A stretch of DNA of 36,169 nt from Catajapyx aquilonaris (lineage: Eukaryota). The position numbers and the translations under genes were made by a program. How positions within the stretch are numbered: the first letter of the stretch is position 1; the number at the start of each line of letters is the position of its first letter. The notes below the pieces were generated by a model. It made no database searches. It saw nothing but the letters and a program-made list of their open reading frames with translations, and was not told where the DNA came from. The stretch covers positions 1-36,169 of the forward strand of contig JYFJ02003944.1 in assembly GCA_000934665.2 (NCBI GenBank). Reading direction: 5' to 3'. This document shows, piece after piece, positions 3,001 to 36,169 of the stretch.

Positions 3001-3890
3001 TTGGAATGCAATCAATGGTAACAACACTCGCAGAACCTGGGAGGGAATGTTAATCACCTGCAAAGTCATTACGGTCCAACCATCACCCAATAAAATAAAT
3101 GGATAAGACAGATAAATAAGCAAAAGATTGTCCATGGCAGTGGGGTTACTAGTGCCATGGCAACAGGTCGCCATGGCATTTTTAAAAAATGTATTACTAC
3201 CATCAGCTACCATGGCGGAAACAAGGCCGTATGAATAACTGGTACCGCTGCTGTAGTACGTAAATAAATAAATCTTACACAAGAACAAGTTTGTTTGTCC
3301 ATGGCAGTGGGGTTACTAATGCCATGGCAACAGGTCGCCATGGGATTTTAAAAAAACTATGTGCTACCATGGAAACAAGCGCCGTGTGAATAACTGGTGC
3401 CGCTGCTAGTACGTAAATAAATAAATCTTACAATACATAAGAACAAGTTTGCTTGTCCATGGCAGTGGGGTTACTAATGCCATGGCAACAGGTCGCCATG
3501 GCATTTTAAAAAACAATGTATTACTACCATGGAAACAAGGCCGTGTGAATAACTGGTACCGCTGCTAGTACGTAAATAAATAAATCTTACATAAGAACAA
3601 GTTTGTCCATGCCAGTGACGTTCCTGGTGCCATGCCAACAGGTTGCCATGGCATTTTTTAAAAACAATGTTGTGGATTACTACCATGGAAACCGGGGCCA
3701 TATGTAAAGAACTGGTACAGCTGCTAGTATGTAAATAAATAAATCTTACACAAGAACAAGTTTGTTTGTCCATGCCAGTGACGTTCCTGGTGCCATGCCA
3801 ACAGGTTGCCATGGCATTTAAAAAAAAACAATGTTGTGGATTACTACCATGGAAACCGGGCCATATGTAAAGAACTGGTACAGCTGCTAA

Positions 3891-4046: not shown

Positions 4047-4049
4047 TTA

Positions 4050-4337
4050 GGGCCAGTTTCGCCGAGCTCGGTATGACTTTTAGAACCTCGGTTATAACCA
4101 GAATATTGTGGCGCAGCAACCATTGTTGTCAACAATGAAAAACTGAGGATGTTTTTTTTTTTTTCGAAATGAAACTTGGATTTAGGGCCTGTTTCGCAAA
4201 CCTCACTATATTACATATCAGAGTTTCTTCTCAAAAAAAATCCTCAGTTTTCATTGTTGACAACAATGGTTGCTATGCCACAATTCTGGTTATAACCGAG
4301 GTTCTAAGTCATACCGAGCTCTCGGTGAAACTGGACC
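4050..4337. mobile_element. PIF/Harbinger-like (Tourist-type) MITE with ~100-bp inverted arms and TTA target-site duplication
   Basis: tta|gggccagtttcgccgag...aactgaggat pairs with atcctcagtt...ctcggtgaaactggacc|tta; TTA at 4047-4049 and 4338-4340. Confidence 0.88.
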
Positions 4338-6688
4338 TTAGTAAATAAATAAATAAACAAGCAAACAAACTAGCAAATCTTAAATAAGGAAAAGTTTGTA
4401 TGTCCGTGGCAGTGGGGGGGTTACCGGTACCATGGCAACAGGTTGCCACGGCATTTAAAAAAACCCATGGTTGTTGTTTACATAGCCATGGAAACAGGTC
4501 ACGTGGAGATTGGGCTCCCCTGCCAGTAAATAAGTAGATAAATACAGTCTATAAATTTAATGAACATATAAAAACATCTCCGTGTACGGCAGAGTACGTC
4601 TCATTTCACGGATTAGCATGGCAACGGCTAAACCAAGCAGATTGGCAGTTCAAAGAACAGGTTCAGCAGCTAGTAAATGCATAAATAAATAATACATTCA
4701 CCACATTTGCCCTGTAATGGAGAGCGACGGAGGAAGTAGTATTGGCGTTGCTTCGGTGAGCAACCATGATCAATGAAATGCACGCTTCTCGATAACAGCT
4801 TTACTCTCACTGGGCTGACAGACTGTACATCAAGCGTAGAGAATAAATTTCTCTGCCTCGCGTAAATAAATACATGTGTTACATTTTTTACAATAGAAGA
4901 TTTTTTTTTTTTTGTCATGGAAAGCGTAGTTACACTGTGGACACTTAAGGTCCACCGTGCGGTGTAGCGGGATTGCCTATGAAGCATTCACTCGCCGTAA
5001 ACCTAAAATGTCCGCGAGAGTAGGAATAGTGCACCATAAAATAGTGCACTTGTCAATGGAATGTGTAGGTTTAAGCCATGCTCACATGGTTTCTGTCTGC
5101 CGAGTTTAGCGATTGTAAGAGACCCACAATAGCACACCTTGGCAAATAAAGCATTGCACTATTTCAGCTTATCCGAGGTAATGCACTTTTCAGGATCAGC
5201 ACCAATAATAATATTGGCTACTATTATTGCAGCATGCCTCATTCCAAGCTTACAACAGTGATGCAACTAATTACAAAGGCCGCATGAAGATAGCGCTACA
5301 TACATGGAGGTAAGTCAGTTTTACAGTGACAATTAGCAGTGAAATTAGGTGGCATCCTAAGTGAGATCTTCACGTGCTTATTTTCATCCGAGAACAGGGA
5401 CGCACATCTTTCATAATGGAAAAGCGAACAGCAAGTTGCAGAAAAATATATTGGCGCAGCTCTTCGATCAGGCCACGCCAAAACACGAAACCCTGCATTT
5501 CAGGAATTGTTATAACCCAATGAATTTCAAGTGAAATATAACCACTTATCACCATGCTGCAGATCACCCTCTATGCATATTCTCACAATCTTTGTGCATC
5601 ACTGAAAGCAAGAATTAAGATCTGCTAAGGTTGGACCCTCGTTCTCAGTTTGGAAATGGCAAACACACTATCCCTTTCCCTTTTTTTTAAATTACGCAAA
5701 AGCCAAGGTGTGGTCTCACAAGTTTCGTTGTGCAATCATACTGTACGTAGGTCTCACCACGAGAGAAATTGGGTGAGCACTTGCCTGCCTAGACCTTATC
5801 ATGAGTTGATATGCAAGGCAATCCAATGGTTGCATACAGTGACCAGTAGCAAAGGTACATTGCAGGGAGGACTACCAAGTTCGTTGTTTCATGAAGCTAC
5901 TTGTACATATTCAATAAAATATGATATTATAACCTCATAAAGGCTCACTCACATACATGACCAAACAAAACAAAATCCGCAACTGCAATGTGCGATTAGG
6001 CCTAGTCTTTATTGTCCGGCTGTAGTCAAATTGTGCCAGGCAAGTAACACTCCGTCACACATTGCCGTAATGGATTTTTTTCGGGATCTAAAGTCAGCGA
6101 ATTGCTCACTAGTGCGAGTTTGTTTTTGTTTGACCTTTAATTTCCATAGGTAAGCTTAGGTGGCAAGGATAATTCGTATTTTCATGTACACTACACAATT
6201 ACTTTAATCATCTCCAATCGCTTGGACAAAAAAAATACCTTCTCTCAATTGAAACAAATTATAACAATGAGGTTCAATTTTCCTGAATGAAGTTCAAATA
6301 ATACTTGTTTGAGTAAATCAACCCTGGCCATTTATGTGTTTGAATCATCATATTTGTTAGAAAAACAGAGTTTCATAAGAAATAATTTAAGTGGCCTGAA
6401 TAAAGGCAACAGCACAAACATAAATTAACAGCTGCAGCTCTCAGTGTCTGAACTGGCAAATGACATCAACAGAAATCAACTTCAGGTAATCTGAGCATCA
6501 ATAAGCAAAAAAAAAAATGGGAGTGAAATGAACGAGCTAATTTCAGTGAGATTTAAACTCCACTTCCTAAAAGCAGTCGTATCAGCGGAAAACCCCACAG
6601 CATAAAATGGCATTTCGGTTAACACCACATGTGCTTGGGTCCTCTCTAAGTAGCTTTATGAACCAAAGAAAATGGCCATCCCACTTCC

Positions 6689-8774
6689 TCAGTAGCCATC
6701 AGTGACTCTAGCGTCTTCATCAGTCACTGTGCTTGCGACCCCCACGGCCCCTTCGCTACTTGCCACTTCGATCCCCTCATCTCTTCCCTCCTCCTCTTCC
6801 TCCTCGACCTCCTCCAAGAGTGGTGGAGGAGGCAACACACCTGCTGCCACGGCCTCTCTCTCAAGCTCCACCAGCTGCCGCCTAAGCCGTCCCACCCTCC
6901 TCCGCAGCTCCTGGTCCTTCTCTTTGGCTCTTGAAATGCTCCTCCAGGCCTGCTTCTGTGGTGATGGATCGACAACCCAGCGTAAAAAGAAGCCAGTCCA
7001 GAGGCCCAGGCTCATTGGAGCCACGGAGGGCCAAAGAGGGCGACTGTTTGGCTCATACAGGGGGTTCAGATGGGCCTGGAGAACCTCAGGGCGGTTCAGG
7101 TACGACCATAGACTCACCTGGAAATATGTCAACAATATGTTATGTCATCGGCTGACATGAACAAAAAAGGAGCATGTATAGCCTGTTAAACGGGTAATTT
7201 TAAAAAAAACATTCCTTACTGTTTGCTTAGGCAGTTTGAGCTTGACTAGTCTCTTCTCCTCAGAGTCACCGAGGAAAGTCCCGAACTGGGAACAGTAGGA
7301 ATGCGCAACCAGCAAAAGCAGGAAGGACTCCCCGAACTCGAAGCTGCAGGGGAACTGTTGTGAGATCTGCCACACGCAATCTAGGAACAACAGGAAGGTC
7401 GGTGCGTTGTGTCTGGTCCTGAATGAGGTCGACGAGAAGCAGGAGTGCTGCTGCCGGCTCCAAAACGGGTGGCCTGCCTGCAGCCACTCGCGCTCTATCA
7501 ACGCTTCAAATCCTCTCACAGTGCGGCAGTCTGGATTTAGTATCACCTGCGCAATAAGGTCAAATTTTAGCAGTGTGGATAGAAAGTACAGGGCATATTA
7601 TCATTGACACAGTTTCCCACATTGCGATTAATTTTTGTGTCCACAATCGGCATTACGAAAGTGCTGACCTGTGCCAGAGAGGTGACCTGCAGTGTTGCAT
7701 CTACTCCTTCTGACCCGTGGACTAGGACAGAGGCTCCTTCTTGGTCCAAGCACTGGGCTACTAAACAGGCACAATTCAGGGTTTCTTTAACATGCGTCAG
7801 CCAGTTTGAACTCTCCAGTCGTGACAGCCATTTGTCGACTGATGCTGTAGTGTCCTGGCAGGCATCCACCAGCTTGGTCAGCGAGTCCAGAGTCGCATGG
7901 TGGACTGGCTTGTGCAGGCGCCTCCATTGAGGATAGTGCTGCTCTAGTTCATATCCTCCACCTGGAAAACAATGACCTATTATTGTAGGAAAGCACCTTT
8001 AGCAATTTTAAGCAAAGCATGTTAACCTTTTGACCTGGCTCCTTGTGCGGCTGCTTGTGTCCGTGTGTCCACAATGTAGCCTCTCTTCCCTGGTCCTAGC
8101 ACAGAGTTCACCAGCCTCTCGTCTTCCCTGCATCTCCTCCCTGCTGGTCCTACCAATGGCTGGCCTGCCCTTAGCATAATACCTCCACCTTCATGCCTGT
8201 AGCTGAGAACTGGAAAGCGTCCGCCTTGTCTAAAGGAAGAAGCTGCTGCCAGCTCTTCATCGTCTATTGCCTTCGGGACAACCATAGCCGCCGGGTAGGT
8301 TGGACACAGCTGATAGTCCCGGTTGGCATGTGACACCCGCCAATCATCCGTCGCCATCACAAGTGACGCAAACTCCGATTGCGGCTGGAATGCCGTCCAG
8401 CCATCTTCAAGTACCGTGTACATTGGGCGGTAGAAAAAAGGGTACTGCAGCGATGGATCATCAATGCTGCTAAGGCTCTCCAGTGACTGGGACACATTCG
8501 CAAGCTCATCCCCATTGGCAACGTCGATCTGTACAACCAACAAGTCTTTGCAGCGCAGTATAAGGCTCCCACCGTCACTTCCACCCCACGGACGCCTCTC
8601 AACGCTATCAATGTTGCGGTGAAGAAGCCACAGCTCCTCCTGCGAGTCCTTACGTGACGAGAGAATCAAGTGATGACTAGTAATGCAGAGGGTGACTTCC
8701 GTCGGGTCGTGGAAAGGCTGCTTCAGAATCACCCGGTTCAGTTTGGGCGTCTTAATCAAGTGTGAAAACTCCAT
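6689..8774 (-). CDS. MTMR9: Myotubularin-related protein 9 (catalytically inactive myotubularin), 4 coding exons, ~598 aa
   Basis: Exons 8774-8027, 7961-7669, 7546-7220, 7117-6689; all introns GT-AG with consistent phases (1,0,0). N-terminal PH-GRAM-like MEFSHLIKTPK...LCITSHHLILSS; myotubularin motifs CPTYP, FRQGGRFPVLSY, LIEREWLQAGHPF, FLLFLDCVWQI..QFPCSFEF; the CX5R active site is replaced by VLVHGSEGVDAT, as in MTMR9; C-terminal coiled coil. A splice acceptor at 8783 implies an upstream non-coding exon. Confidence 0.93.
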
Positions 8775-9004
8775 GATTCAGACTGAAAGAATAAAACTTG
8801 AATAGAACACCATTTCGAACAAAACCAATGTGTCAAAAAAAATGTATTTCCAGCCAACCTGTGTTCCAGCTGATCTTTTCCAGGCTCTCCAGCTGATCTA
8901 TATTTTCCAGGCTTTGGTCCAGTCGAATTGACTCCAGCTCTGCCGAAGAAGAAAAAAAAAAGTCAGCCTTTCCAGTAGAATGAACAGTGTTCGTCATACA
9001 CAGT

Positions 9005-10440: not shown

Positions 10441-10592
10441 GGCCGGGTTGCACCGGCAAATATGTCTGGCCAAAGAAGAGCCCGGTTAGTTTGTTATTCA
10501 TTGTTGTCAACATTTCTGTCAACAATGAACAACAAACTAACCTGGCTCTTCTTCGGCCAGACAAATTTTCCTGGAGCCGGTGCAACCCGGCC
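10441..10592. mobile_element. PIF/Harbinger-like palindromic MITE, 3-bp direct repeat CTA
   Basis: cta|ggccgggttgcaccggc ... gccggtgcaacccggcc|cta (perfect 17-bp TIR) plus long imperfect internal arms. Confidence 0.85.
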
Positions 10593-17305: not shown

Positions 17306-20300
17306 AGGGAAAGAGAGAGAGAGATCTCTCCTCCCATCAGCTTGGCTCATGCGGATCAAGGGAAGGAAGCAAGTAGTGCAGAATAAAAAAAAATGCTGGG
17401 CAGAGCAAGGAAGGGACATGCCAATTTTTGCTTGACGCGCACTACTGTTTGCCAGAATTGCAGATTTTAATAAAAAGCAATGGCAAAATGCGGGATTTCA
17501 TAACGATGGTTTTTAGATTTTAATCCCAGTTTACCAACAGGGCAGTGGGCAGTATTTTAAATATGATGTTGCCCCCCCCCCAAAAGAACACTGCTTTTAT
17601 TAGCAGATTAATAAGGCTCTGCGCTGAAATCCTGTGCTAGAAAGTACGTGTGTTCAGCCTCCACGTCAAAATAGGCGACGATTACTTTCAGTCACATAAA
17701 TGCTTAAATTTTTCAGGCCCTTTCAGTGGAACTATTGAGGCGTTGACATGGGAAAGGGCGTAAGTCACAAAAATATATTTTTACCGGGGCTCGGGAGAAA
17801 AACCCGTTTTTAGCACACTTATGACCGGTTTCACCAAGCCCGGTTTCCATAAAAACCCCGGTTCTTTCAGAAAATCCCTATTCTATTTGCAGGGATTTTC
17901 TGAAAGAACCGGGGTTTTTATGAAAACCGGGCTTGGTGAAACCGGCCATTACACAATCTTTCATATTGTTAGATTTTGTTACAAAATGTCGCGAAAAGTA
18001 AACGAAAGTCAGTTTGTGTGTTTTAACATTTAAATATAGGCGACTTTTGTTTTCTTTTGGAGGCTTTATTTCTCTTTGCGACTTGCGCCCTTTCCCTTGT
18101 CAATGCCTGAGTGTGTTGAGATAATTATGTTCTGTTGATTGCACATATGCTTTCCGTGTACAGGTCGAATGCCATGAGACAGCTGACGGTGGAGCAGCTG
18201 TGTCACCTGCTCAAGTTTGCTTGCAACAGGATGAAAACAGTTGCAGGGGTGAGTGTCCTCTTGATCCAACTGGAATCTACAACTACATTTTCAGTAACTT
18301 TGGTATTGTGTGGAGCAGTTTCGCTTGCCTAACACCTTCACCGCATTTCATTGGGGTTTTTTCCCCTGCCTTTAGGCCGAGCCGTTCTGCCGCCCTGTGA
18401 ATGCTCTGGAGTTCCCCCGGTACCGTGAGTTTGTGACTCTTCCCATGGACGTGACCCAGCTGGAGCGCAACATCAAGCGTCGCCAGTACGGCAGCACGGA
18501 GGCGTTCCTCGCTGATGCCAAGTGGATCCTGCACAACTGCATAATATTCAACACGTTCCAGTCCAAGCTGACGGCCATCGCCAAGAGCCTGCTCAAGGTC
18601 TGCAGGCACGAGATGGCCGAGATCGAGACCTGTCCCGACTGCTACCTGCACGCCCATGTCAAGAAAGACTCCTGGTTTTTAGAGCCGTGTGTGAGTATGC
18701 AAAAAGTGTGACAACGATTTATCAAAAGTATGCCGCACATGAATGATTTCTGGTAATGCTTCACGTTGTGGTTGAAAACATGTTGCAGCTTAAAAGCTGG
18801 TCATGTATGCAGTTCATATGATGTGAAGTGCTGTTCGCACTGCAGTGAGTCGAGGAAGGTTCAACTTCCTGCGTACCAGGAAGATGTACAGTATTTTGGA
18901 TTAGATTTCGTGAAAATCACACAGTTTTACATATTACTTCACAACTGCTTTGAAATGTGATTTTATCTGGCGAAATAGTGACAATTATTTTACTCTCAGG
19001 TTGCGAGTGTAAGATGATTCAGTAGGTGTTGTCAACATACTGCAACATGTAATATTAACTATTTGTCCCCCCCTGAAGGCACTGTTTTAATGCGAAAATT
19101 TTTGCACAGGCATAATATGGAGGTTGAGGGATGAGTTTTGCAGGTAGAAAGTTTTCTCAAGCAGTGAACCAACCCTATAGCGTGTGCTTTCCGAGAGGCA
19201 GGAAGGAAATTCACAGAAGTTAAAATTGCGTGACGAAAGTACAGGTTGTGTTGAACAATAGTTTCAGGTTGAGCAGTCACCCAACTTCCTGATGCTGCGG
19301 ATAGTGACTCTATTGTTCCTTCTTCGCATTGTTGTTGTTGTTGTCTTTTACGACGATGATGAAGACACCACTGCATTAATCTGAGGCTGCAGAGCTGGTC
19401 ATATTCTTAAAATTATTAATCCACTTATCAGATCAAACGTGAATCAAGTGACTAATCACAACTTTTAATATTCCTGTGTGACCTACTTTGTAAAGTGTCG
19501 ACTATTTAAATGTCGGATGACTTGAAAAACCGTGATTGGTGTTAGCTAGTTTTATATTCACTTGGTTGTGGCCTCGACTTGTTGGATTCGCTCAGGCGTT
19601 GACTCATCCGACATGTGGAAGAGAAAGGGGCATTGCCAAGTTGAGCAAGTCGCAAGGAGAAAGTGACCCATTTCTCGAGGCTAATAGACAGATGATCATA
19701 TTTGTATTATCATATGGATATATGATCGCCATTTATAATTTCGATGTGGATGAAACTTTAATTATGTAACCTTAGGGCGTTCTTTTTGTGACGAGTTGTG
19801 CGTAAATATATGCTGGTATTTTATTGCTGGATGTTGATGTTAATTTTTTTGTAAACTCCACTTTTGCAGAGACGACCTCACATGCTGGTTTGGGCCAAGC
19901 TGAAGGGCTTCCCGTTCTGGCCCGCGAAGGCTATGAAGACCAACAGGGAGGCGTCCGCAGTTGACGTGCGATTCTTTGGAGCCCACGACAGGCCAGTACC
20001 AATTCATATGCAGTAATTATCAGTCCAATATGTTGTTGGTAAACTCAACATTTTCTTGCCCCTTGCACTTCCACCTTTGTTCAATATATTCTCAATATTT
20101 TTCATTTATTTATTTATTTGGAATCAGTTTGCCAGTTGGACTGTGTAGAAAGGGAGCTCTGGGCTGTAATTTTTGTGGTGTTTTCGCTTTTTGTTTTTTT
20201 GATAACTGCACAAGTTGTACAAGTTGCTCTTAAACTTACGTAGGAACATTGTTGCACTGTTTCGCCTGCATGAAATTTAATAACTCTTAACCCATGGTGA

Positions 20301-23300
20301 CACACGCGGACGCTAATAATCTGAAAATGATTCAACATTACTGCTGTCGGATTCCTTAGATGCCGAGAGCCAGCCTGTTTTCAAAATGGTTTACAGAAAT
20401 GTACGGAAACATCAGAATCCTTGAATTACTGTGCCTTTTGAAATATTTACTGCAGACTTATTGCGCCAGTGCTGACCACTGTTATGCAAATTTTTTTGTG
20501 TGTGTAAGTTTAACGACAGGCACATGACTTTTTGTTAGAACGGGGATGTTGATTAGGGAAAATTGTTCAATTCTGCAGGGCTTGGGTGCCGGTGAAAGAC
20601 TGCTTCCTGTACAGCCTGGAGATCCCAGTCCAGGTGAAGAACAAGAAGAAGGGGAACCTCGAGGGCTGCATCCAGGAGGTGGAGTCCCACATCCGCAAGC
20701 TGCAGGATCGGTTTGGACGCTTCCAGCACGCCACATTCCGCGTCCAGTTTGATCCGGCCAGGGAAGAGGAGCAACTCAGGGAACTGCTTCCCAACGTAAG
20801 TCTTTCGTGTGTATAGTGCCGAATGTCCCAATTTCAATTGTGTCAATAGTGCAGGCATATCAGTCAGATGTGTGACCAAACCCAGTAAAAAATAATGTAA
20901 ATCTGAAAATTGGAGGAAGTGTTCTGTGGTGAACAACATACTAAAAGTCCTATGCCGGCGTCATGTTTTTTTCTGCGCAAGAAGTACATTTCCCAAAATT
21001 ACAACGTTTTGGCGCTCCCAAAATTTGGGCGGGGAAAGAGATCAGCCCTTTTTCGGCGTATCATTTCAGTGTGTGGCCCACGTCCAAACCCATCAAACAT
21101 GTACATCAAAAGAAAGAGGAAGACGGGGAGAATGCAACTATGGAAGTGGTTTCCCCCACCTATGCAACCTTACATAGGTCAAATTTCCCAGAATTTGGAC
21201 CTCCAGAAATTAGTGATGTAATTGCTCCACATACTTCATGTTTGGCGACACGAATATAGACTCACACACGTTGCGATCTGTCAAGTTTGAAGCTTGAGTT
21301 ATGTATAGTTCGTGAGGGGGGAAAAAAGCAACTTTGGGTTTTCGGTCAATTTTGCGACCTTTGACCCCTGCTTTCGCTTTGTGGCACTGGAAGAATCTGA
21401 CCGGAATTAATATTACTGGAATCCTCGTTTCATGCACAAAGGATATTTGTGTTCACTCTCATTCAGGGGGAAATCCAAGGCAGTTGCTCAAACTTTGGAG
21501 ACCCATGATTACTTACACTTAAAATGATAGCCTAGAACCCCTCTAGCAGTCACGCTCAGTTTCCGCACCTTCTGTACAGGTAGGCCTACACAGTAGGGTG
21601 GAGCGGGAAAAAAAACGGGGGGTCAAAAGTTGTGTATGGACAAGTATAACACTGGTGATTTTTTTTATTGGAATTGTCGTACTTCATCTTCATTTGTCGC
21701 AAGAGCCTTCAAGTTTCGCAATTTTTGTCAGAAAAACACATATTACATTATGCTTTATGCAACACGATTTTTGTCCATGGACGTTCATAGCTCTTTCCAT
21801 GTTACTTACTTCTCCTCTGCACAGGTTGAAAAGATACACCTAGGGCACTGTACACGATGCTTTGCGCACTAGTAACTGGACTTGTCTGATGGTTACAATC
21901 CTCTGACTACGGATTTGTCATCATGAAATAAAAAATACCAGTCGAATCCCTCTATAACGATAATCCGCTTATAACGAAAGAAAATTTGTGACTGTCAGAG
22001 GCCCCCATATAAACCCATGTTAAAAACATCCGCTTTTAAGGAATAGGATTTTCGGTTTCGGTTCGCATATAACGAAAAAAAAATTCGCAAGGGCAGAAGT
22101 TGGGCCATAAGTCACCATCTGTGATTCAGGGATTCAACCTTTTTTTTCACACATTACGTCCAAAAGTCGATAATTTGGGGGGGTCCTAATGGAAGGGAAA
22201 GGATTCTCTGGGAGGGATGTCGCCCAGTTACTCAGAGCTGCCCCCACTGGATTTATTTCTAGCACCTGGCCCCCCCTCAGGGAAGGCCAGGCAGGTGGTT
22301 AATTAAAACCTGGGAATATTCATGGGAAAATTAGAGCAGCAAAACAAATCACATCTGGAAGGTGGGGTGAGGGCAGGTGAGGGAGCCAGAGGGCAAGGAG
22401 AAAGGCTTTGGCCTGCATCTGGTGCAGGTGTTTGTTCAGCCGCAGCAGTCAGTGTACACTTCACTCCAAGAAGCAGTTTTAGGCATGGCACCAAAGAGGA
22501 AGAGTCTCAGCGTGGAAGAAAAACGTCGCATTTTGAAAGAAGTGGATTCGAAGCAGAAGAAAGTAGACATCGCGAAACAGTACAACATTGCGCCAAGTTC
22601 TTTAAAAATAATCATCAAGGACCGCAAAAAATTCGAGGAAGCAGCAGACCCCTCAGCCAAAAGACTACGTACAAGCAGGCATCCTGAGGTTGATGAAGCT
22701 GTTTTACTGTGGTTCACGGACCAGCGTACACGAAATGTGCCGGTGGATGGCCTTGGTCTTCGTGCGAAGGCATCGGCTTTAGCTGCCACCCTGGGTCACC
22801 GCGATTTCAAGGCTTCTTCTGGGTGGTTGAGCAGATTCCAGAAACGGCATGGGTTCGCTAACAAGACGACGTCGGGGGAGGGCAAGTCCGTTGACGATGA
22901 TACAGTGCAAGAGCGGCTCAAGAGTACCGAAGAGAAGGCACCAAAGAGGAGGAGTCTCAGCGTGGAAGAAAAACGTCGCATTTTGAAAAAAGTGGATTCG
23001 AAGCAGAAGAAATTAGACATCGCGAAAGAGCACAACATTACGCCAAGAAGTTTATCAACAATCATCAAGGACCGCAAAAAAATCGAGGAAGCAGCAGACC
23101 CCTCAGCCAACAGACTATGTGCACCCAGGCATCCTGAGGTTGATGAAGCGGTTTTACTGTGGTTCACAGACCAGCGTACACGAAATGTGCCAGTGGATGA
23201 CCTTCATCTTCGTGCGAAGGCATCGGCTTTAGCTGCCATCCTGGGTCTCCGCGATTTCAAGGCTTCTTCTTGGTGGTTGAAAAGATTCAAGAAACGGCAT

Positions 23301-26300
23301 GGGTTCGCTAACAAGACGACTTCGGGGGAGGGTAAGTCTGTTGACGACGATACAGTGCAAGAGCGGCTGTCGAGTACCAAAGAGTAGAGTAGTTGAGAGT
23401 AGCTCAAGAGTACCGAAAATCAGAGGGCCCAGTGCAGTCCGCGTGACACCTACAACGCAGATGAAACGGAGCTGACACCTCACAATACTTTGGCTTTCAA
23501 AGGCGAAAAAATGGTATGGCGGAAAGCATAGTAAGGCAAGTCATTTAATTCTCTCTCTCTCTCTCCTGTTGGAGGCACGCGGGATTGTGCCTGGCCCCCT
23601 GCAGATGATTCCGATGAAGATGATGATTTGGACACCAGTGACATTAACCTGGGTATTAGTTACACTTTGGAAGACGAAGATGTGGCGATGGCGGGAGTTG
23701 ATTTTGACGACGCATTATTAACAATTTGGTTCCCTTCAATTTCCGTTATATACATTCGACCGTATGTTGTTCAGCACGCTTAACAGAACATTTCCTCCCA
23801 TTTTCATATTTACGTTATTTTTTACCGGGTCAAACCATAAAATGCCTGGGCCATATGGTTTTTTTGTCGTAATTTCCACATTATGTGACTCTTGGTGACT
23901 TGTGCAACTCTTGGGATCACTGCCAAAATGTAGTTATTCATTGTTGTTTTTTTTCCCAATTGCAGTACAATCCCCCTGATATGGGCACGTCCAATCCCAA
24001 AAAATCGTCTTCCGTAAGCGTAAAAGCCAAGGAGAAGAAACGGAAGAGGAAGAGCGAAAGTCGAGAGGAGAGAACGGAGGAAAGGGCGGAGGAGAAAGCG
24101 GATGAGAAGGTGAAGGAGAAAGCGGAGGAACGGAGGGAAGAGAGAGAGGAGGAGGAGGCGGCGCAGGCACCCCCAGCTGCTGCGGTAGTGGCGCCAGCAC
24201 CATCAGAAGTGACTGAAAGAACGAGTAATGAGGACGAGGAGGAGAAGGAGGAGAAGGAAGAAGAAGTGTTGAGTCCACTGAAGGCAGACGAGATCAAGAA
24301 GGAGGTGGAGGAGGAGGAAGGAGACGCAGCGGATCCGGTGATGCCGGACGGGACTGAGCTAAAGTCTGTGAAAGTGGTAGTGGAGCGTTTGGCGGTGGAC
24401 AGGGAAGAGGAGAAGGGAGACGCCTCGGGAGAAGCGGAAGAAGAAGACGGGGAGGAAGGAGAAAGGGATGAGACTGAGAAGGACCTGCGGGAAGAAGAGA
24501 AGAAGGCAGTGGAGGGAGGTGCGGAAGAGGAAGAAGAAGAAAAGGAGGAGGAGAAGATGGACACTAGTGAAAGTTCAAAGGAGGATGAAGCGGAACAATC
24601 AAAGTGCGAAGGGGCGGAGGAAAACAAGGAGGAGAAGCAGGCATCGGTCGAAGGGGAAAAGGAAGTCCCGAAGGAAGGGAAGGGAGAGGAGGAGGAGAAG
24701 AGTGCGGCGAAGGAAGCGGCGCCGGCGGCGGCAGGAGAGGAGGAGAAGGAGAAGGAGGAGGAGCTGCTCTCGGGGCTGCAGCTCGACCCAAGCATCACAG
24801 TCACGCTAGTTAAAGGTGGGTTGCACGGGATTACGTTTGAAAGTTGACGCCAATGTGGCTCATCTTGTAATAGCCGGTTTCATGGCGGTTGTGTGTGTCT
24901 GCCATTTCAGGTGGTGCCGCAGGAGTCACCACACCTTCCAGTAGAACTGCTGCTTCATCGCCATCGTCGTCCTCATCATCGACGTCCTCAACGTCGTCGT
25001 CGTCTTCGTCGACCACATCATCATCATCAGCCTCTCCGTCCGTTACGCAGCAACGCCCGGTCCCGGTGGTTGCGCCCAAGACGCTCCAACTCAGTTCCGA
25101 CATCACGCTCACACTAGTGGAAGGCGGCACCGTGGGTCGTGCGTCAATCAAGCGCCGGAGAACGTCACCACCTGACCCTGCTCCCACCCCGACCCCGACC
25201 CAAGTACCCAGTGCAACCCCGAACCCGGGGACTCCCCCGCCTATACCAAAGGAACAGACTATGGTGGTGAGCCTGGATCCGCAGGACATTATCGCCGGTG
25301 CTCTCGACACAGACGAGGACGAGTCGCCCGGGGGGCCGACCCAAGGCCCGGTTCTTCCGAGAGCGAGGAAGAGCTTGCCGAGGGCTCCCCAGCCGCCCGT
25401 TCCAGGAACCAAGCCGATGGTGGTCATCCCTGCCTACACGGCCCTTCCTCTGAGGCCACCGCAGCAGCAGGTCAGGGCACCAGTGAGGCCGCCCATGCCA
25501 GGCCAAGGACCAGCCCAGGGCCCACCTCGCTTACCCCAGCTGCAGCCACGGCCCCCTCCTTTAGGCCTGGCCCACGCTGGACGACCCCCGGCGCCATCCG
25601 AGGCTGGGCCAGCTTCCGCACAGCTCAACAAGTACTCCCAGAAGGTACTTTCCCGCAAACGTTCCTTTAGGCCGAGATGTAACGTGTCCATTTCAGTTGG
25701 CCGACTTCATGCGATCTTCCCTGGAGGAGATGTTCCGGGAGCTGTCCGCTTCTGGTAGCCCCGAGGCGACTGCCAAGGCCCTTCAGCTGGAGCTGGAGCG
25801 CATGCAGTGGCGCCACCACCAGGAGATGGCGGAGCTGAAGCACAACGCGGACCTGGTCCTGATGGAGCTGCGGGGCAGCATGGAGGCGGAGAAGCAGAGG
25901 GCCATGCAGGAGCTGCGGAGGCAGTGCGAGGCGGAGAAGCAGAGGGCGGTCCAGGAGGCCAAGAGGAAGCAGTGGTGCGCCCACTGCGGAAACGAGGCCC
26001 TCTTCTACTGCTGCTGGAACACCTCCTACTGCGACTACCCTTGCCAGGTGGGTTCAGGTTCGCTTCGAGTAATCGCAGGCTTGTAATACCGGATCACCAT
26101 TGCAGCAAGCGCACTGGCCCCAGCATATGTCTTCGTGTGCGCAGCAGGCAGGGCCGGAGGACGCGGACAAGGACGGAGGGGCAGGCGGCGGGAAGGGCGG
26201 GAGAGGGGGAGGAGACGCCGCGGGAGGTCCCCAGGCGAAGAGGGGCACCCCGCCCATCGGCCAGCCCGGCGTCCCCATGCAGATGCTGCCAGGACAGGTA

Positions 26301-28812: not shown

Positions 28813-30684
28813 TTATTGGTCATGCGAGTAGTTACACTCATCGCTTGAGATCGGGCAGCCTTGCGGATGCGACGTGTGGAACCAGCAGGGCTTCTTGTAC
28901 CCGGCGACCCCTTTCCTGACCTTCCTCTTCTTCCGCTTTGATTCGTTGACGTCTCCGGGGACTCTGAAGCGGACAAGGCCGCCTTCGACCACAAACACGT
29001 GGTGCTGGTTCCGCAGGACGGTCTGTACGCCTCCGCACTCGCTCCTCATCTCCTGAAGCCAGTCGGACGGAATCTTCAAAGCCACTTGGCTCAACGGAAC
29101 TTGTCCGCCGCAGTTCCAGCCAGTTTCAGGTCCAAGTTCCAGCAATAATTGCGTGGTAATCTGGATTATTCCGGACACGATATCCGGATTCAGGTTGGCC
29201 AGATTACGCGGACGCGGGACTTGATCAGATCGGACTTGAAATCCGGATACGGTTGACAGTATCTGGTTAACGGCTTGGTGGTCCGGGATTAACTCGAGGC
29301 CCACTATGCATGTCCGCTTCGTGCTTGGAATCCTCATGCGGTCCCGCTCGGTGCGGACAAACCCGATTTGACGGCTGAGTTCCTCCAGGTAGTCCAGGAA
29401 ATCCGTGTAGCAGCTCATTTGGCCCGACTTTCTGCGTGAAAACCGTCCGGATAAGCCCCACGGACAGCATGGAATTATTAGGAATTTGGACCCTTCGCTG
29501 GCGGCGGCTAGAGGTATCCACGGAGTCAGCTCGTCCGGATGGTTCCCAATGAGCCAGTCGAATCCGGACAACGAACCGAATCCCTTCGCCGGACACCAAG
29601 TGAACACCTTCAAATCGACGCCTGGAAACGCATCCCAGATTCTACGTGCTCTCACGTCGAACCCGCGTCCAACATGTCCTTCAGACGACAGCAAGTAGAC
29701 GAGTAAGCCGTTGCCGCATCCAATGTCCACAAATGTTTGCGGACTGTCCCCGCATTCTTGTTCCCATAGTACTAGAATGTACGCGGCTATTGCGATATCC
29801 TCGTGTATGAACTTGTCTGGATCTGTAGTTTCGGTCCACATGTCCCTGATTCTTGCAAAGTGCTTGGCCTTCAGTCGCGCGTATGTCCGGACGTACTTTT
29901 CAGTGTCAACCAGCTTCTGCGAGCTGTCTGTCCCGGATTCGTCGACAGTGTTGGCCCAACGGGCTATCCTTGGCAGTAGTGTCCTCCTGAGCCAGTCGGA
30001 CGCACCAGTCAGGAACCGCATGCGAACCAAACCGGGAGTGTACTGAACCGAGTAAGACACATTCGGAAGAGTACCGGACACGTCCCGATCGGCAAACGGA
30101 AGGAAGGTAACTTGCGCTTTGCACACGTCCCAGATCTCAACCTGAAACAAGTCGGCCGCGTCCAACAGCAGCTGTCCTTTGGGCAGCAGGCGTCGCATGA
30201 GCGCATGCGAGGTGTCCGGATGGCCGTCCCATTGGGGCTGTCCGTCCAGTGCTTCCTGGGCATCCTGGACAAGGGTGGTTCCAAGCATGGCCTGGACCAG
30301 TGCGTCCGGGTCAGTCGCTGCCGCCTGTGCAACGGGAGCTGATGCGCCGGACAGCCGCTTGTTGATCAGCTGTGGGCGTCCGCTCCAGATGCCCATGGCC
30401 CTCCAGAACTGGCCAATGCTGCCCACGCACTCCACACTGATGGTCATGAAGGAGAAGCAATTAGCGTGCAATAATTACACTGTAATTACACATGGAATTA
30501 ACTGAAACTGAGCCAAACCCACTCCTTCAGCTGGAGCTGCTCTGAGACTACCCCAGTGCAGTGCACACACCACCAGGCTAAACACTTCTTTAATTATTAA
30601 ATTTGTTAAAACATGATCAAACCTGTAATTGTCGCACATCTTCCCGCAATTAGCTGGATTAATGAGGCACGTGGACGCCGCCAT
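28813..30684 (-). CDS. TRMT44: tRNA (uracil-2'-O)-methyltransferase Trm44, probably 2 exons, ~561 aa
   Basis: Motifs WTETTDPDKFIHEDIAIAAY, FVDIGCGNGLLVYLL, WLIGNHPDELTPW, IIPCC, MRIPSTKR and a C-terminal CCCH finger (CWFHTSHPQGCPISSDECNYSH). Model: exon 30684-30623 (aagATGGCGGCG start, AG|GT donor, phase 2) spliced to 30436-28813 (ctaat branch site, pyrimidine tract, cag, phase 2). The alternative is an unspliced start at ATG 30447. Confidence 0.9.
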
Positions 30685-30937
30685 CTTTGATCTAGTACCG
30701 GTGCAGTTACTGCAGTTGACAAGGTTCCCACCAGATGGCTCGTGTGTTCGGCGGGATGTTCGAAAAAAAAAAGATTGAATATTATTATTAAATATTGAAT
30801 ATTAGGCAGCATAATCATGCAAATGGAAACTGGCTGTGGGAGGTAGGGTCTTTGTGTCTCATTTTGCCCAAGTTTTTGTTAATCATTGTAATTCGGTGTT
30901 TGCTATATATACGGTTTGCGCCCTTATTAGGCCTATA

Positions 30938-31498
30938 CAGGGTGTTTATTGTAACTCCGCAAAGACTTTCAGGGGCAATAGAGGGGACCAATACAAGTAT
31001 TTTTGACATAGGAACCCGTGTCCGGAAACGCCATCTAGAGGGGGTTCATAGACGAGGAACGGGTGCGCTCAGACGCGTCACGCGGGAGGCGCTAGGTGAG
31101 CGGACTGTTTGTTGATAGATGGCGCTCGGATATTAAACACCAATGCGATGTGCCATAACCTGGCAACAACAGAGCCATCTAGCAACTAAAGTCCGCCTAC
31201 TAGGAGACGCGCGGATAGTCAACAGCGGTTCTGTTGTTGCCAGGTTATGGCGTATCGCGTTGTTGTTTACTTACAACGACGCGATACGCCATAACCTGGC
31301 AACACCTGCGCACCATCTATCAACAAAACAGTCCGCTCTCCTAGCGCCTCCCGCATGAAGAGTCTGAGCGCACCCGTTCCTTGTCTATGAACCCCCTCTA
31401 GATGGCGTTTCCGGACACGGGTTCCTATGTCAAAAATACTTGTATTGGTCCCCTCTATTGCCCCTGAAAGTCTTTGCAGAGTTACAATAAACACCCTG
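30938..31498. mobile_element. Tc1/mariner-type foldback MITE, 561 bp, TA target-site duplication
   Basis: ta|cagggtgtttattgtaact... and ...agttacaataaacaccctg|ta; inverted arms near-identical for ~115 bp and alignable for ~190 bp; three internal gccataacctggcaaca subrepeats in both orientations. Confidence 0.92.
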
Positions 31499-31662
31499 TA
31501 TAATAATACTTTCAATTAGCGTAATTTTCTGTAAAGTTATCCTCCATACGTCCAAAAAGAAGTAAAATTTTGTGCCTCAAATATTTGTTCTAAAAAAATG
31601 AACTTTCAGACCGTGATGACATTACCCGTGTGGTGTAAGTTGAGCCAATAAAAATACCTGTG

Positions 31663-35441: not shown

Positions 35442-36169
35442 CTACAGGAAGAAGAGCGTGTCGGACATATTGGAGTGTACATCGGTGTGTATGTACTCCC
35501 CAACGAGGTAGGCCAGCTTATGGGCGTACTGGCAGGGGGCAGGCACGCGGACGGTGCCACTCCAGTTGAAGTACAGGTGGCACATTTTGTGGGTAAGCCG
35601 CTGCACCTTGTCCGGCTCCAGATTTAGCGTATCGAAGATGATGGAGTAGCTGGTGGGCGAGACCGTCCCCTGCCGCACCGTCTGGGAGATCAGGTAGAAG
35701 TCGTACCTCTCCGGAAGAGTGATGATATCGTCCACAATGGTTCCAGGGCTGGGGTTCCCCTGCTGGGCGGTCATGATGCGGGTGTTCAGCCGCTTGTTCA
35801 CGATGATGAACGCAAATTTGTAGGCGTTTGGGCTGTAGATCTTGGCCAGGGATTCCTGGATCTGTGACAACTCGTGATCCTTCACGTAGCCTACCTGCAA
35901 AGGCAAAGGACACGCTTTTAAACACAGGCCGGCAATTGGAAACTATAACTGCCCATATGACGCTACCAGGAACAACTTCCAATGAAAACACAACAATCAC
36001 GGAAGACATTGTCTACTTCAAGGTCAGCACTTGCAGCGAGAAAAGTGGCAGGTCCCCTCCCATAATTACTGCGAAAAACCACTGGCTCACCTGGCCCTCA
36101 CCAACTCCATCACGGTACAGAATGATATGCGACGGAAGCTTGCCATTCGTCTCCTTGTACTTGTGCAAG
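35442..36169 (-). CDS. PIWI-clade Argonaute (Piwi/Aubergine-like), last two coding exons; gene continues beyond the window
   Basis: Exon 36169-36091 encodes LHKYKETNGKLPSHIILYRDGVGEGQ; GT-AG intron 36090-35895 (phase 0); exon 35894-35442 encodes NPSPGTIVDD..TLPERYDFYLISQTVRQGTVSPTSY...HLYFNWSGTVRVPAPCQYAHKLA...LFFL-stop, which are PIWI-subfamily signatures. The paralogue cannot be assigned from this fragment. Confidence 0.93.

Follow-up and report, generated by a model that had tools for sequence, protein, structure and literature searches.

The window analyzed here, a stretch of 36,169 nucleotides (nt) that constitutes contig JYFJ02003944.1 of Catajapyx aquilonaris (assembly GCA_000934665.2), harbors a ZMYND8-like gene on its forward strand, and one of the introns of this gene holds an internally deleted Tigger/pogo transposable element extending from about 21938 to 23762. 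The element lies in sense orientation relative to the ZMYND8-like gene and carries an open reading frame (ORF) of 300 codons, in which the DNA-binding segment of the transposase, comprising two helix-turn-helix (HTH) domains, occurs twice in tandem and in the same frame. The features of the host gene, the element, and the ORF are distributed as follows:

18376-18708, + strand: exon of the ZMYND8-like host gene encoding the bromodomain (domain search).
20796..23965, + strand: intron of the ZMYND8-like host gene holding the Tigger element (GT..AG ends, spliced contig of run X5).
21936..21964, + strand: TA flank (21936-21937) and 5' terminal inverted repeat (TIR), from local alignment of the left end with the reverse complement of the right end.
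21938..22484, + strand: 5' terminal, untranslated portion of the element, apparently the high-copy part of the family, with relatives resembling MITEs (miniature inverted-repeat transposable elements).
22485..22934, + strand: unit 1, with the ATG, CENP-B_N (residues 3-50), and HTH_Tnp_Tc5 (residues 67-127); the better preserved unit.
22935..23384, + strand: unit 2, which repeats unit 1 in frame and carries both of its domains; the ATG of unit 1 has become AAG here.
23385..23402, + strand: 18-nt filler of reiterated AGAGTA-like pieces at the end of unit 2 (sequence reading).
23403..23535, + strand: native continuation of the transposase after the re-copied 15 nt, reaching the start of the DDE region (about residues 146-196 of a relative of 497 aa).
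23550..23565, no strand: (TC)n run, where the large internal deletion that took away the DDE domain is located (sequence reading).
23601..23711, + strand: acid-rich open stretch within the frame 23535-23783.
23739..23764, + strand: 3' TIR (23739-23762) and TA flank (23763-23764), from local alignment and sequence reading.
25565-26083, + strand: ZMYND8_CC plus MYND region of the ZMYND8-like host gene (domain search).

A spliced contig of run X5 joins position 20795 to 23966 and skips 3170 nt with GT..AG ends; the Tigger element is therefore intronic. This joint, together with the bromodomain and the ZMYND8_CC/MYND domains on the + strand, confirms the nesting in a ZMYND8 intron that had been proposed in a first-pass annotation of the sequence. 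The ORF belongs to a stop-to-stop frame of 338 aa (22371-23387, + strand) and, when read from the ATG at 22485, runs through 300 codons to the TAG at 23385-23387 (22485-23387, + strand). Tandem Repeats Finder delimited an array at 22487-23384 with a period of 450, 2.0 copies, 91% matches, 0% indels, and a score of 1530. Comparison of the two units by self-BLAST produced 91.35% identity over 451 nt with E=0, so that their resemblance is not due to chance. In total, the units differ at 39 of 450 nt and at 24 of 150 residues with no indel between them, and the 33 codons that differ comprise 24 with non-synonymous and nine with synonymous changes. The uninterrupted frame built from two tandem 150-codon units, and the lack of any indel or stop between the copies, had already been pointed out in the first-pass annotation and stand as described; its hand count of about 29 differing codons out of 143 was of the right order, and the exact figures are the 33 codons and 24 residues given above.

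The Pfam scan of the whole ORF detected HTH_Tnp_Tc5 in two stretches (E 4.9e-34) and CENP-B_N in two stretches (E 1.1e-10), in line with the four HTH domains expected beforehand. When the units were scored alone, HTH_Tnp_Tc5 reached 59.9 bits in unit 1 and 59.7 bits in unit 2, and CENP-B_N reached 27.0 and 24.1 bits, respectively, all of them above the Pfam cut-offs. Additionally, unit 1 matches the DNA-binding domain of human CENP-B (1HLV_A) over residues 1-130 with an E of 1.2e-18, a sequence-level match that settles the fold of the units.

The element surrounding this ORF exhibits the hallmarks of the pogo/Tigger group, namely the bipartite N-terminal DNA-binding domain (CENP-B_N/psq-type HTH plus HTH_Tnp_Tc5) and TIRs with TA flanks. 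Its TIRs (21939-21964 compared with the reverse complement of 23739-23762) are imperfect, with mismatches and two small gaps, and a TA is found on each side. A subterminal inverted copy of the terminus was also detected (21932-21958 and 22121-22147, 70% complementary). Three full-length relatives of 497-513 aa served as tblastn queries against the element. Residues 1-145 of P0020 match unit 1, its residues 2-188 match 22938-23510 in a single frame, and its residues 185-196 match 23500-23535 weakly (E 1.1) and in a different frame; a frame change in the transposase remnant is located near 23500-23510. The transposase coverage in the element thereby extends from residue 1 to about residue 196 of the 497-aa relative, and residues ~200-497 of the three relatives, which hold the catalytic region, yielded no tblastn match at E<0.01. 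DDE_1 was absent from the ORF in the Pfam scan, and the element is therefore a deletion derivative and not autonomous. Together, the imperfect TIRs, the truncated transposase coverage, and the missing DDE_1 agree with the earlier description of the host element as dead and devoid of a catalytic domain. The acid-rich stretch at 23601-23711 is possibly a remnant of the C-terminal tail of the transposase; it produced no significant match to the transposase relatives.

The junctions of the duplicated segment were inspected by reading the sequence. Units 1 and 2 both end with the identical three non-native letters. A derivation of the units from two different source elements was considered and rejected on account of this common non-native end before the junction, which points to the in-place duplication of a single 450-nt segment. 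The filler at 23385-23402 contains three stops in the frame of the ORF (TAG, TGA, and TAG), the first of which terminates the ORF, and the tblastn alignments of the relatives pass through the filler in one frame. Downstream of it lies a third copy of the 15 nt that close the native unit (23403-23417), followed in the same frame by the native downstream transposase. The 18-nt filler and the re-copied 15-nt piece look like a repair scar of the type left by error-prone break repair. Aberrant gap or break repair is the accepted explanation for the deletion derivatives of cut-and-paste elements, and the filler, its short reiterated motifs, and the re-copied stretch lead us to propose it as the origin of the present arrangement. 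Passages of a study of such elements (PMC3814204) trace Tc1/mariner deletion derivatives to gap repair that aborts after excision and to template switching in the course of synthesis, and they describe microhomology together with inserted "scar" nucleotides at the junctions. At the present locus, an aberrant double-strand-break or gap repair would have produced the deletion, the duplication, and the filler as its scars, and the repair may have gone wrong through an interruption of synthesis in which the template was switched or slippage occurred at short repeats. Since the duplication, each unit would have drifted by about 4-5% without constraint. That the frame is still open would be owed to a duplicated length that is by chance divisible by three, to substitutions too few for a stop to be probable, and to the lack, so far, of any indel. 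A protein made from the ORF would hypothetically consist of two CENP-B-like DNA-binding modules without a catalytic domain. We therefore favor, with a probability of roughly 0.74, the interpretation that the locus is a rearranged, internally deleted, non-autonomous pogo/Tigger relic whose DNA-binding segment faulty repair doubled without a frame shift, and whose frame remains open by youth and luck.

The tandem arrangement was next examined in the contigs of runs X1-X3, which contain the stretch; these runs represent one sample, maybe the source of the assembly itself, and provide no independent support. No listed contig piece spans the junction between the units near 22935, so that the tandem arrangement rests on the assembly, and a low-depth contig joint from 22915 to 23402 (depth 9.2 in X2 and 6.8 in X3, with a short side of 26 letters, and none in X1) would skip unit 2. 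Both observations are what would be anticipated if, as an assembly artefact, a single unit had been entered twice side by side in the form of two diverged copies or haplotypes. This explanation nevertheless appears highly improbable, given that both units have their own contigs at about single-copy depth: in X1, the contig at 22533-22786 exhibits no other letters relative to unit 1 (depth 39.1) and that at 22983-23236 exhibits one relative to unit 2 (depth 21.8), compared with 30-32 over the exons. Unit 1 is also linked by contigs to the 5' part of the element (22184-22511), contigs at 23291-23684 connect unit 2 with the filler and with the remnant downstream, and the bin that contains the junction (22916-23066) is covered in X1-X3. 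The joint 22915/23402 was also considered as a possible undoubled paralogue; this candidate was dropped and the joint left uninterpreted, its offset being 486 instead of the 496 expected from the 16-mer shared by 22906-22921 and 23402-23417.

Summed contig depth in X1-X3, which is a rough measure and not a copy number, amounted to 18-45 over unit 2, 12-42 over the exons, 35-99 over unit 1, and 350-1600 over the element termini, with 350-1230 over 21938-22484. By this rough measure the termini appear to belong to a high-copy family with many MITE-like relatives. The first ~200 nt of the element (21938-22147) have the highest depth and look like a MITE-sized unit with Tigger ends. On the same rough scale, the depth of unit 2 is close to that of the single-copy exons, and the presence of the duplicated structure in many dispersed copies, which the first-pass annotation had named as incompatible with its proposal, was not seen.

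Compared at the sequence level, the changes between the units look like unconstrained drift. The 39 nt differences are distributed over codon positions 1, 2, and 3 as 16, 12, and 11. The Nei-Gojobori comparison of unit 1 with unit 2 yielded eight synonymous changes at 101.5 sites and 31 non-synonymous ones at 348.5 sites, corresponding to proportions of synonymous (pS) and non-synonymous (pN) differences of 0.079 and 0.089 and to an omega (dN/dS) of 1.14, a value that compares paralogous units and not orthologues (binomial p=0.85 against the neutral share). When 39 random substitutions were simulated on the doubled unit, the frame remained free of stops in 19-22% of the trials, and the 24 residue differences observed compare with 27.1 +/- 2.7 expected from as many random substitutions (P=0.17). 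As a reference for conservation, 195 related modules from 155 proteins were aligned with both units, which defined 36 conserved columns (at least 60%) and ten most conserved columns (at least 85%). Column entropy was 2.47 for the 24 positions that differ and 2.50 for the 126 that do not (Mann-Whitney p=0.50), and the 36 conserved columns take up seven of these 24 differences, compared with 5.76 expected. Unit 2 keeps 29 of the 36 conserved columns, an ordinary value at the 63rd percentile, and neither unit is therefore badly eroded yet. It retains seven of the ten most conserved columns, as few as in 18 of the 195 other modules, and its losses include S38R, K59N, R62C, G89D, and G113W, of which K59, G89, and G113 are conserved in 85-89% of the 195 modules (K59 in 85% and both glycines in about 89%).

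Several observations weigh against the interpretation as a drifting relic. Preservation of unit 1 is very good, with 32 of the 36 conserved columns and all ten of the most conserved ones retained. The doubled form seems not to be a family variant that exists in many copies, and its open frame is therefore not attributable to recent copying. Across 900 nt, with as many as 39 substitutions, no indel has accumulated; the window's 18 other repeat pairs together show 86 gap openings to 396 mismatches, a ratio of 0.22 at which 8.6 indels would be expected and their complete absence would have a probability of 0.0002, in a test that is unfair to an unquantified degree, these comparators being AT-rich satellites and palindromes, which are prone to indels. 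In pseudogenes, the ratio of indels to substitutions ranges from 0.035 to 0.1, and applying this range gives a probability of 0.26 to 0.02 for the absence of indels. In a paralogous contig of 681 nt, the alignment to unit 1 over 22661-22881 (221 nt) has 26 other letters and likewise no gaps. Finally, codons 1-65 hold 19 non-synonymous and no synonymous changes, versus 12 and eight in codons 66-150 (Fisher p=0.003, with a boundary chosen post hoc); with the Pfam domain boundaries instead, the ratios of non-synonymous to synonymous changes are 10:0 and 7:3 (p=0.21). The residue differences at 27, 32, 33, 36, 38, 41, and 42 are located in the helix-turn-helix of the first HTH domain, where these seven are spread over helix 2, the turn, and the recognition helix.

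These same observations bear on the possibility that the ORF is expressed from the 5' region of the element itself, yielding a two-module truncated transposase that binds the termini of the family or of its MITE-like relatives as a competitor or repressor, with the frame kept open, at least temporarily, by selection on the element or the host. Such a product would be compatible with an open frame that has a native start codon, with two modules that both pass the Pfam cut-offs, with the lack of indels among 39 substitutions, with the intact set of most conserved residues in unit 1, and, judging from the rough depth, with the many element termini available as targets; the excess of non-synonymous changes in codons 1-65, including those in the first HTH, could furthermore mean a shifted binding specificity. 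We nonetheless consider it unlikely, as the overall omega is 1.14, the conserved columns were not spared, unit 2 has lost two glycines and one lysine that are conserved at about 89% and 85%, respectively, and the excess depends on the post hoc boundary, with p=0.21 for the Pfam boundaries. No run recorded as RNA was listed as containing 21700-24000. Run X5, with its spliced, RNA-like contigs, gave no cover over 21859-23821 and only the spliced form of the host, which counts neither way. It is quite improbable, in our estimation, that the ORF has been kept open as a functional four-HTH protein free of catalysis, in which the first HTH has diversified since the duplication so that the modules read different sequences, acting as a repressor or an early-stage host regulator. 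Equally doubtful are the corollaries that its targets would be the termini of the abundant MITE-like relatives and that it would represent a young example of the arrays of multiple DNA-binding modules that occur among uncharacterized predicted proteins of other animals.

Relatives of the units were sought in protein and metagenome sets. None of 1.84 billion representative proteins was more than 51% identical to either unit, the best relative lying at 48-51% identity. A word-indexed protein search retrieved six matches of at most 48% identity, each to one unit, the ESM Atlas contained single-module "tigger transposable element-derived" clusters only, and 596 pattern matches to the units in metagenome contigs included none that could be confirmed. 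A TRM44-like ORF of the same window is likewise without a match above 45% in the protein collection, which indicates that the proteins of the source genome are not in these sets and that the absence of the ORF from them is uninformative.

The public protein sets do contain many predicted proteins with two to eight tandem CENP-B_N plus HTH_Tnp_Tc5 modules and no DDE domain (P0008-P0145). Among the best 150 matches, 31 had two to eight matched stretches, and 27 of these 31 were without DDE_1; among the 155 related proteins, 24 carry at least two full modules. Identity between modules of the same protein is mostly 28-78%, reaching 93% in one case, compared with 84% for the units of the window. 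Examples include P0012, with two modules in 329 aa, P0010, with three in 774 aa, and P0008, with three modules back to back in 417 aa, which occurs in Logan assemblies only and has tick proteins as its relatives. The names printed for P0073 and for the relatives of P0008 are "hypothetical" or "HTH CENPB-type domain-containing", and two multi-module proteins are fused to unrelated enzymes. Judged by their sequences, these proteins may be either real genes or gene models drawn across transposon debris; they suggest that the architecture can persist, and they are not close kin of the ORF in the window. No paper on multi-module arrays of Tigger DNA-binding domains was among the matches listed by full-text literature searches.

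The proposal of the first-pass annotation, that the ORF is a host-domesticated gene under selection, located within the ZMYND8-like intron and possibly coding for a new transcription factor, draws on the open frame and the four HTH domains, and it is further favored by the low-copy or single-copy state of unit 2, as roughly measured by depth, and by the predicted multi-module proteins elsewhere, which make the architecture viable. It is not supported by the comparisons presented above and seems to us scarcely plausible: omega is 1.14, the conserved columns are not spared, and unit 2 lacks K59, G89, and G113, leaving no sign of constraint. As listed in the relevant passage of PMC4231638, the six criteria of Feschotte and Pritham for domestication comprise the absence of TIRs, similarity to transposases, an intact and constrained frame, synteny, expression, and a phenotype, and the same source describes Drosophila CAG as having a dN/dS of 0.083, conserved synteny, and expression. 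Here, TIRs and TA flanks persist, contrary to the first of these criteria (PMC4231638), similarity to transposases is evident, and the frame is intact but not constrained, which provides half of what the third one asks for. Moreover, the ORF stops inside the repair filler and is directly followed by dead transposase sequence in the same frame, its units are 84% identical as opposed to the mostly 28-78% within multi-module proteins, which leaves no long retention to explain, and the protein sets offered no relative above 51% identity.

Under the favored interpretation as a rearranged relic, the locus represents one more rearranged and dead cut-and-paste transposon that matters little in itself and serves mainly as a worked example: before constraint, orthology, or expression is demonstrated, a frame that is intact within the relic of a transposon speaks only weakly for function. 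Were the ORF functional, it would show a transposase giving rise to a regulator that only binds DNA, caught very early, while the transposon ends are not yet eroded. The unnamed proteins with two to eight tandem Tigger DNA-binding modules and no catalytic domain may be worth more than the ORF itself.

Several further features were observed in the host gene and its neighborhood. The exon of the ZMYND8-like gene at 23966-24813 is very glutamate-rich and of low complexity; the next 95 nt (24814-24908) form a GT..AG intron, removed in the X5 contig, and exon sequence continues from 24909. The part of the host intron upstream of the Tigger element (20802-21858) consists of high-copy repeats, with a summed contig depth of up to ~2400 and many family-wide letter differences. 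An 81% inverted repeat with arms of 62-69 nt (20880-20941 and 23762-23830) brackets the Tigger region; its right arm abuts the 3' TA of the element exactly, and both arms lie in high-depth sequence, which indicates that another repeat family flanks or hosts the Tigger element. A contig joint on opposite strands in X2 (20948/23764) was rejected as a real joint, its depth being that of a contig ending at 20916; most simply, it is the end of that contig also fitting the inverted repeat 20880-20941/23762-23830. Elsewhere in the window, a tandem satellite-like array (offsets of ~165-170 nt and multiples thereof) and several long imperfect palindromes were found at 3093-3889, 4049-4338, 10441-10592, and 30934-31502. 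The neighboring genes, all on the - strand, include exons of a myotubularin-related phosphatase (7148-8777), a stop-to-stop frame of 553 codons with an AdoMet_MTase domain (28816-30474), and a Piwi-domain exon (35445-35942). The second of these is the TRM44-like ORF mentioned above, which looks like the tRNA methyltransferase TRM44 and has its best matches, 36-45% identical, in insects, a copepod, and fishes.

Among known systems, the element resembles the deletion derivatives of the Tc1/mariner-pogo group, such as Ozma of Aedes as presented in passages of PMC3814204, in having kept its TIRs and TA while losing the catalytic region, in the short repeated motifs and "scar" nucleotides at its junctions, and in its apparently high-copy MITE-like relatives with the same termini. 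It is unlike these Ozma-type derivatives in that a coding segment of 450 nt is tandem-duplicated in frame with 300 codons open; the passages on Tc1/mariner derivatives describe deletion and inversion, and not tandem duplication of the DNA-binding region (PMC3814204). With the CENP-B DNA-binding domain (1HLV) and the N-termini of pogo/Tigger transposases, the likeness is that each unit aligns to residues 1-130, and the ORF departs from them in carrying two modules in series with neither a DDE-derived central domain nor a C-terminal region. In CENP-B, TIGD, and JRK proteins, the DNA-binding domain is followed by a DDE-derived central domain, to which CENP-B adds a C-terminal dimerization domain; the ORF has the DNA-binding domain only, twice. 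A DNA-binding domain of transposase origin in an intact frame is also what the ORF shares with the domesticated pogo-derived genes (CENP-B, Drosophila CAG, TIGD, and JRK), from which it differs in the persistence of transposon hallmarks and in an omega of about 1.

The multi-module Tigger proteins, which form no defined family, share with the ORF the presence of at least two complete CENP-B_N plus Tc5 modules in one frame without DDE_1. Their modules are mostly more diverged from one another than the units of the window, so that these proteins are mostly far older or were independently assembled, and none is closer than about 40% to the window units, which are two modules without DDE that have diverged by 16%, with unit 2 losing conserved residues. 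Two better-known proteins offer partial parallels, KP of the P element, a repressor consisting of a truncated transposase, and Pipsqueak, which has four tandem psq HTH repeats; what the predicted product of the ORF would have in common with them is DNA-binding-only character with transposase origin in the former case and a tandem array of the same HTH type in the latter, and both illustrate possible roles for a protein of this sort.

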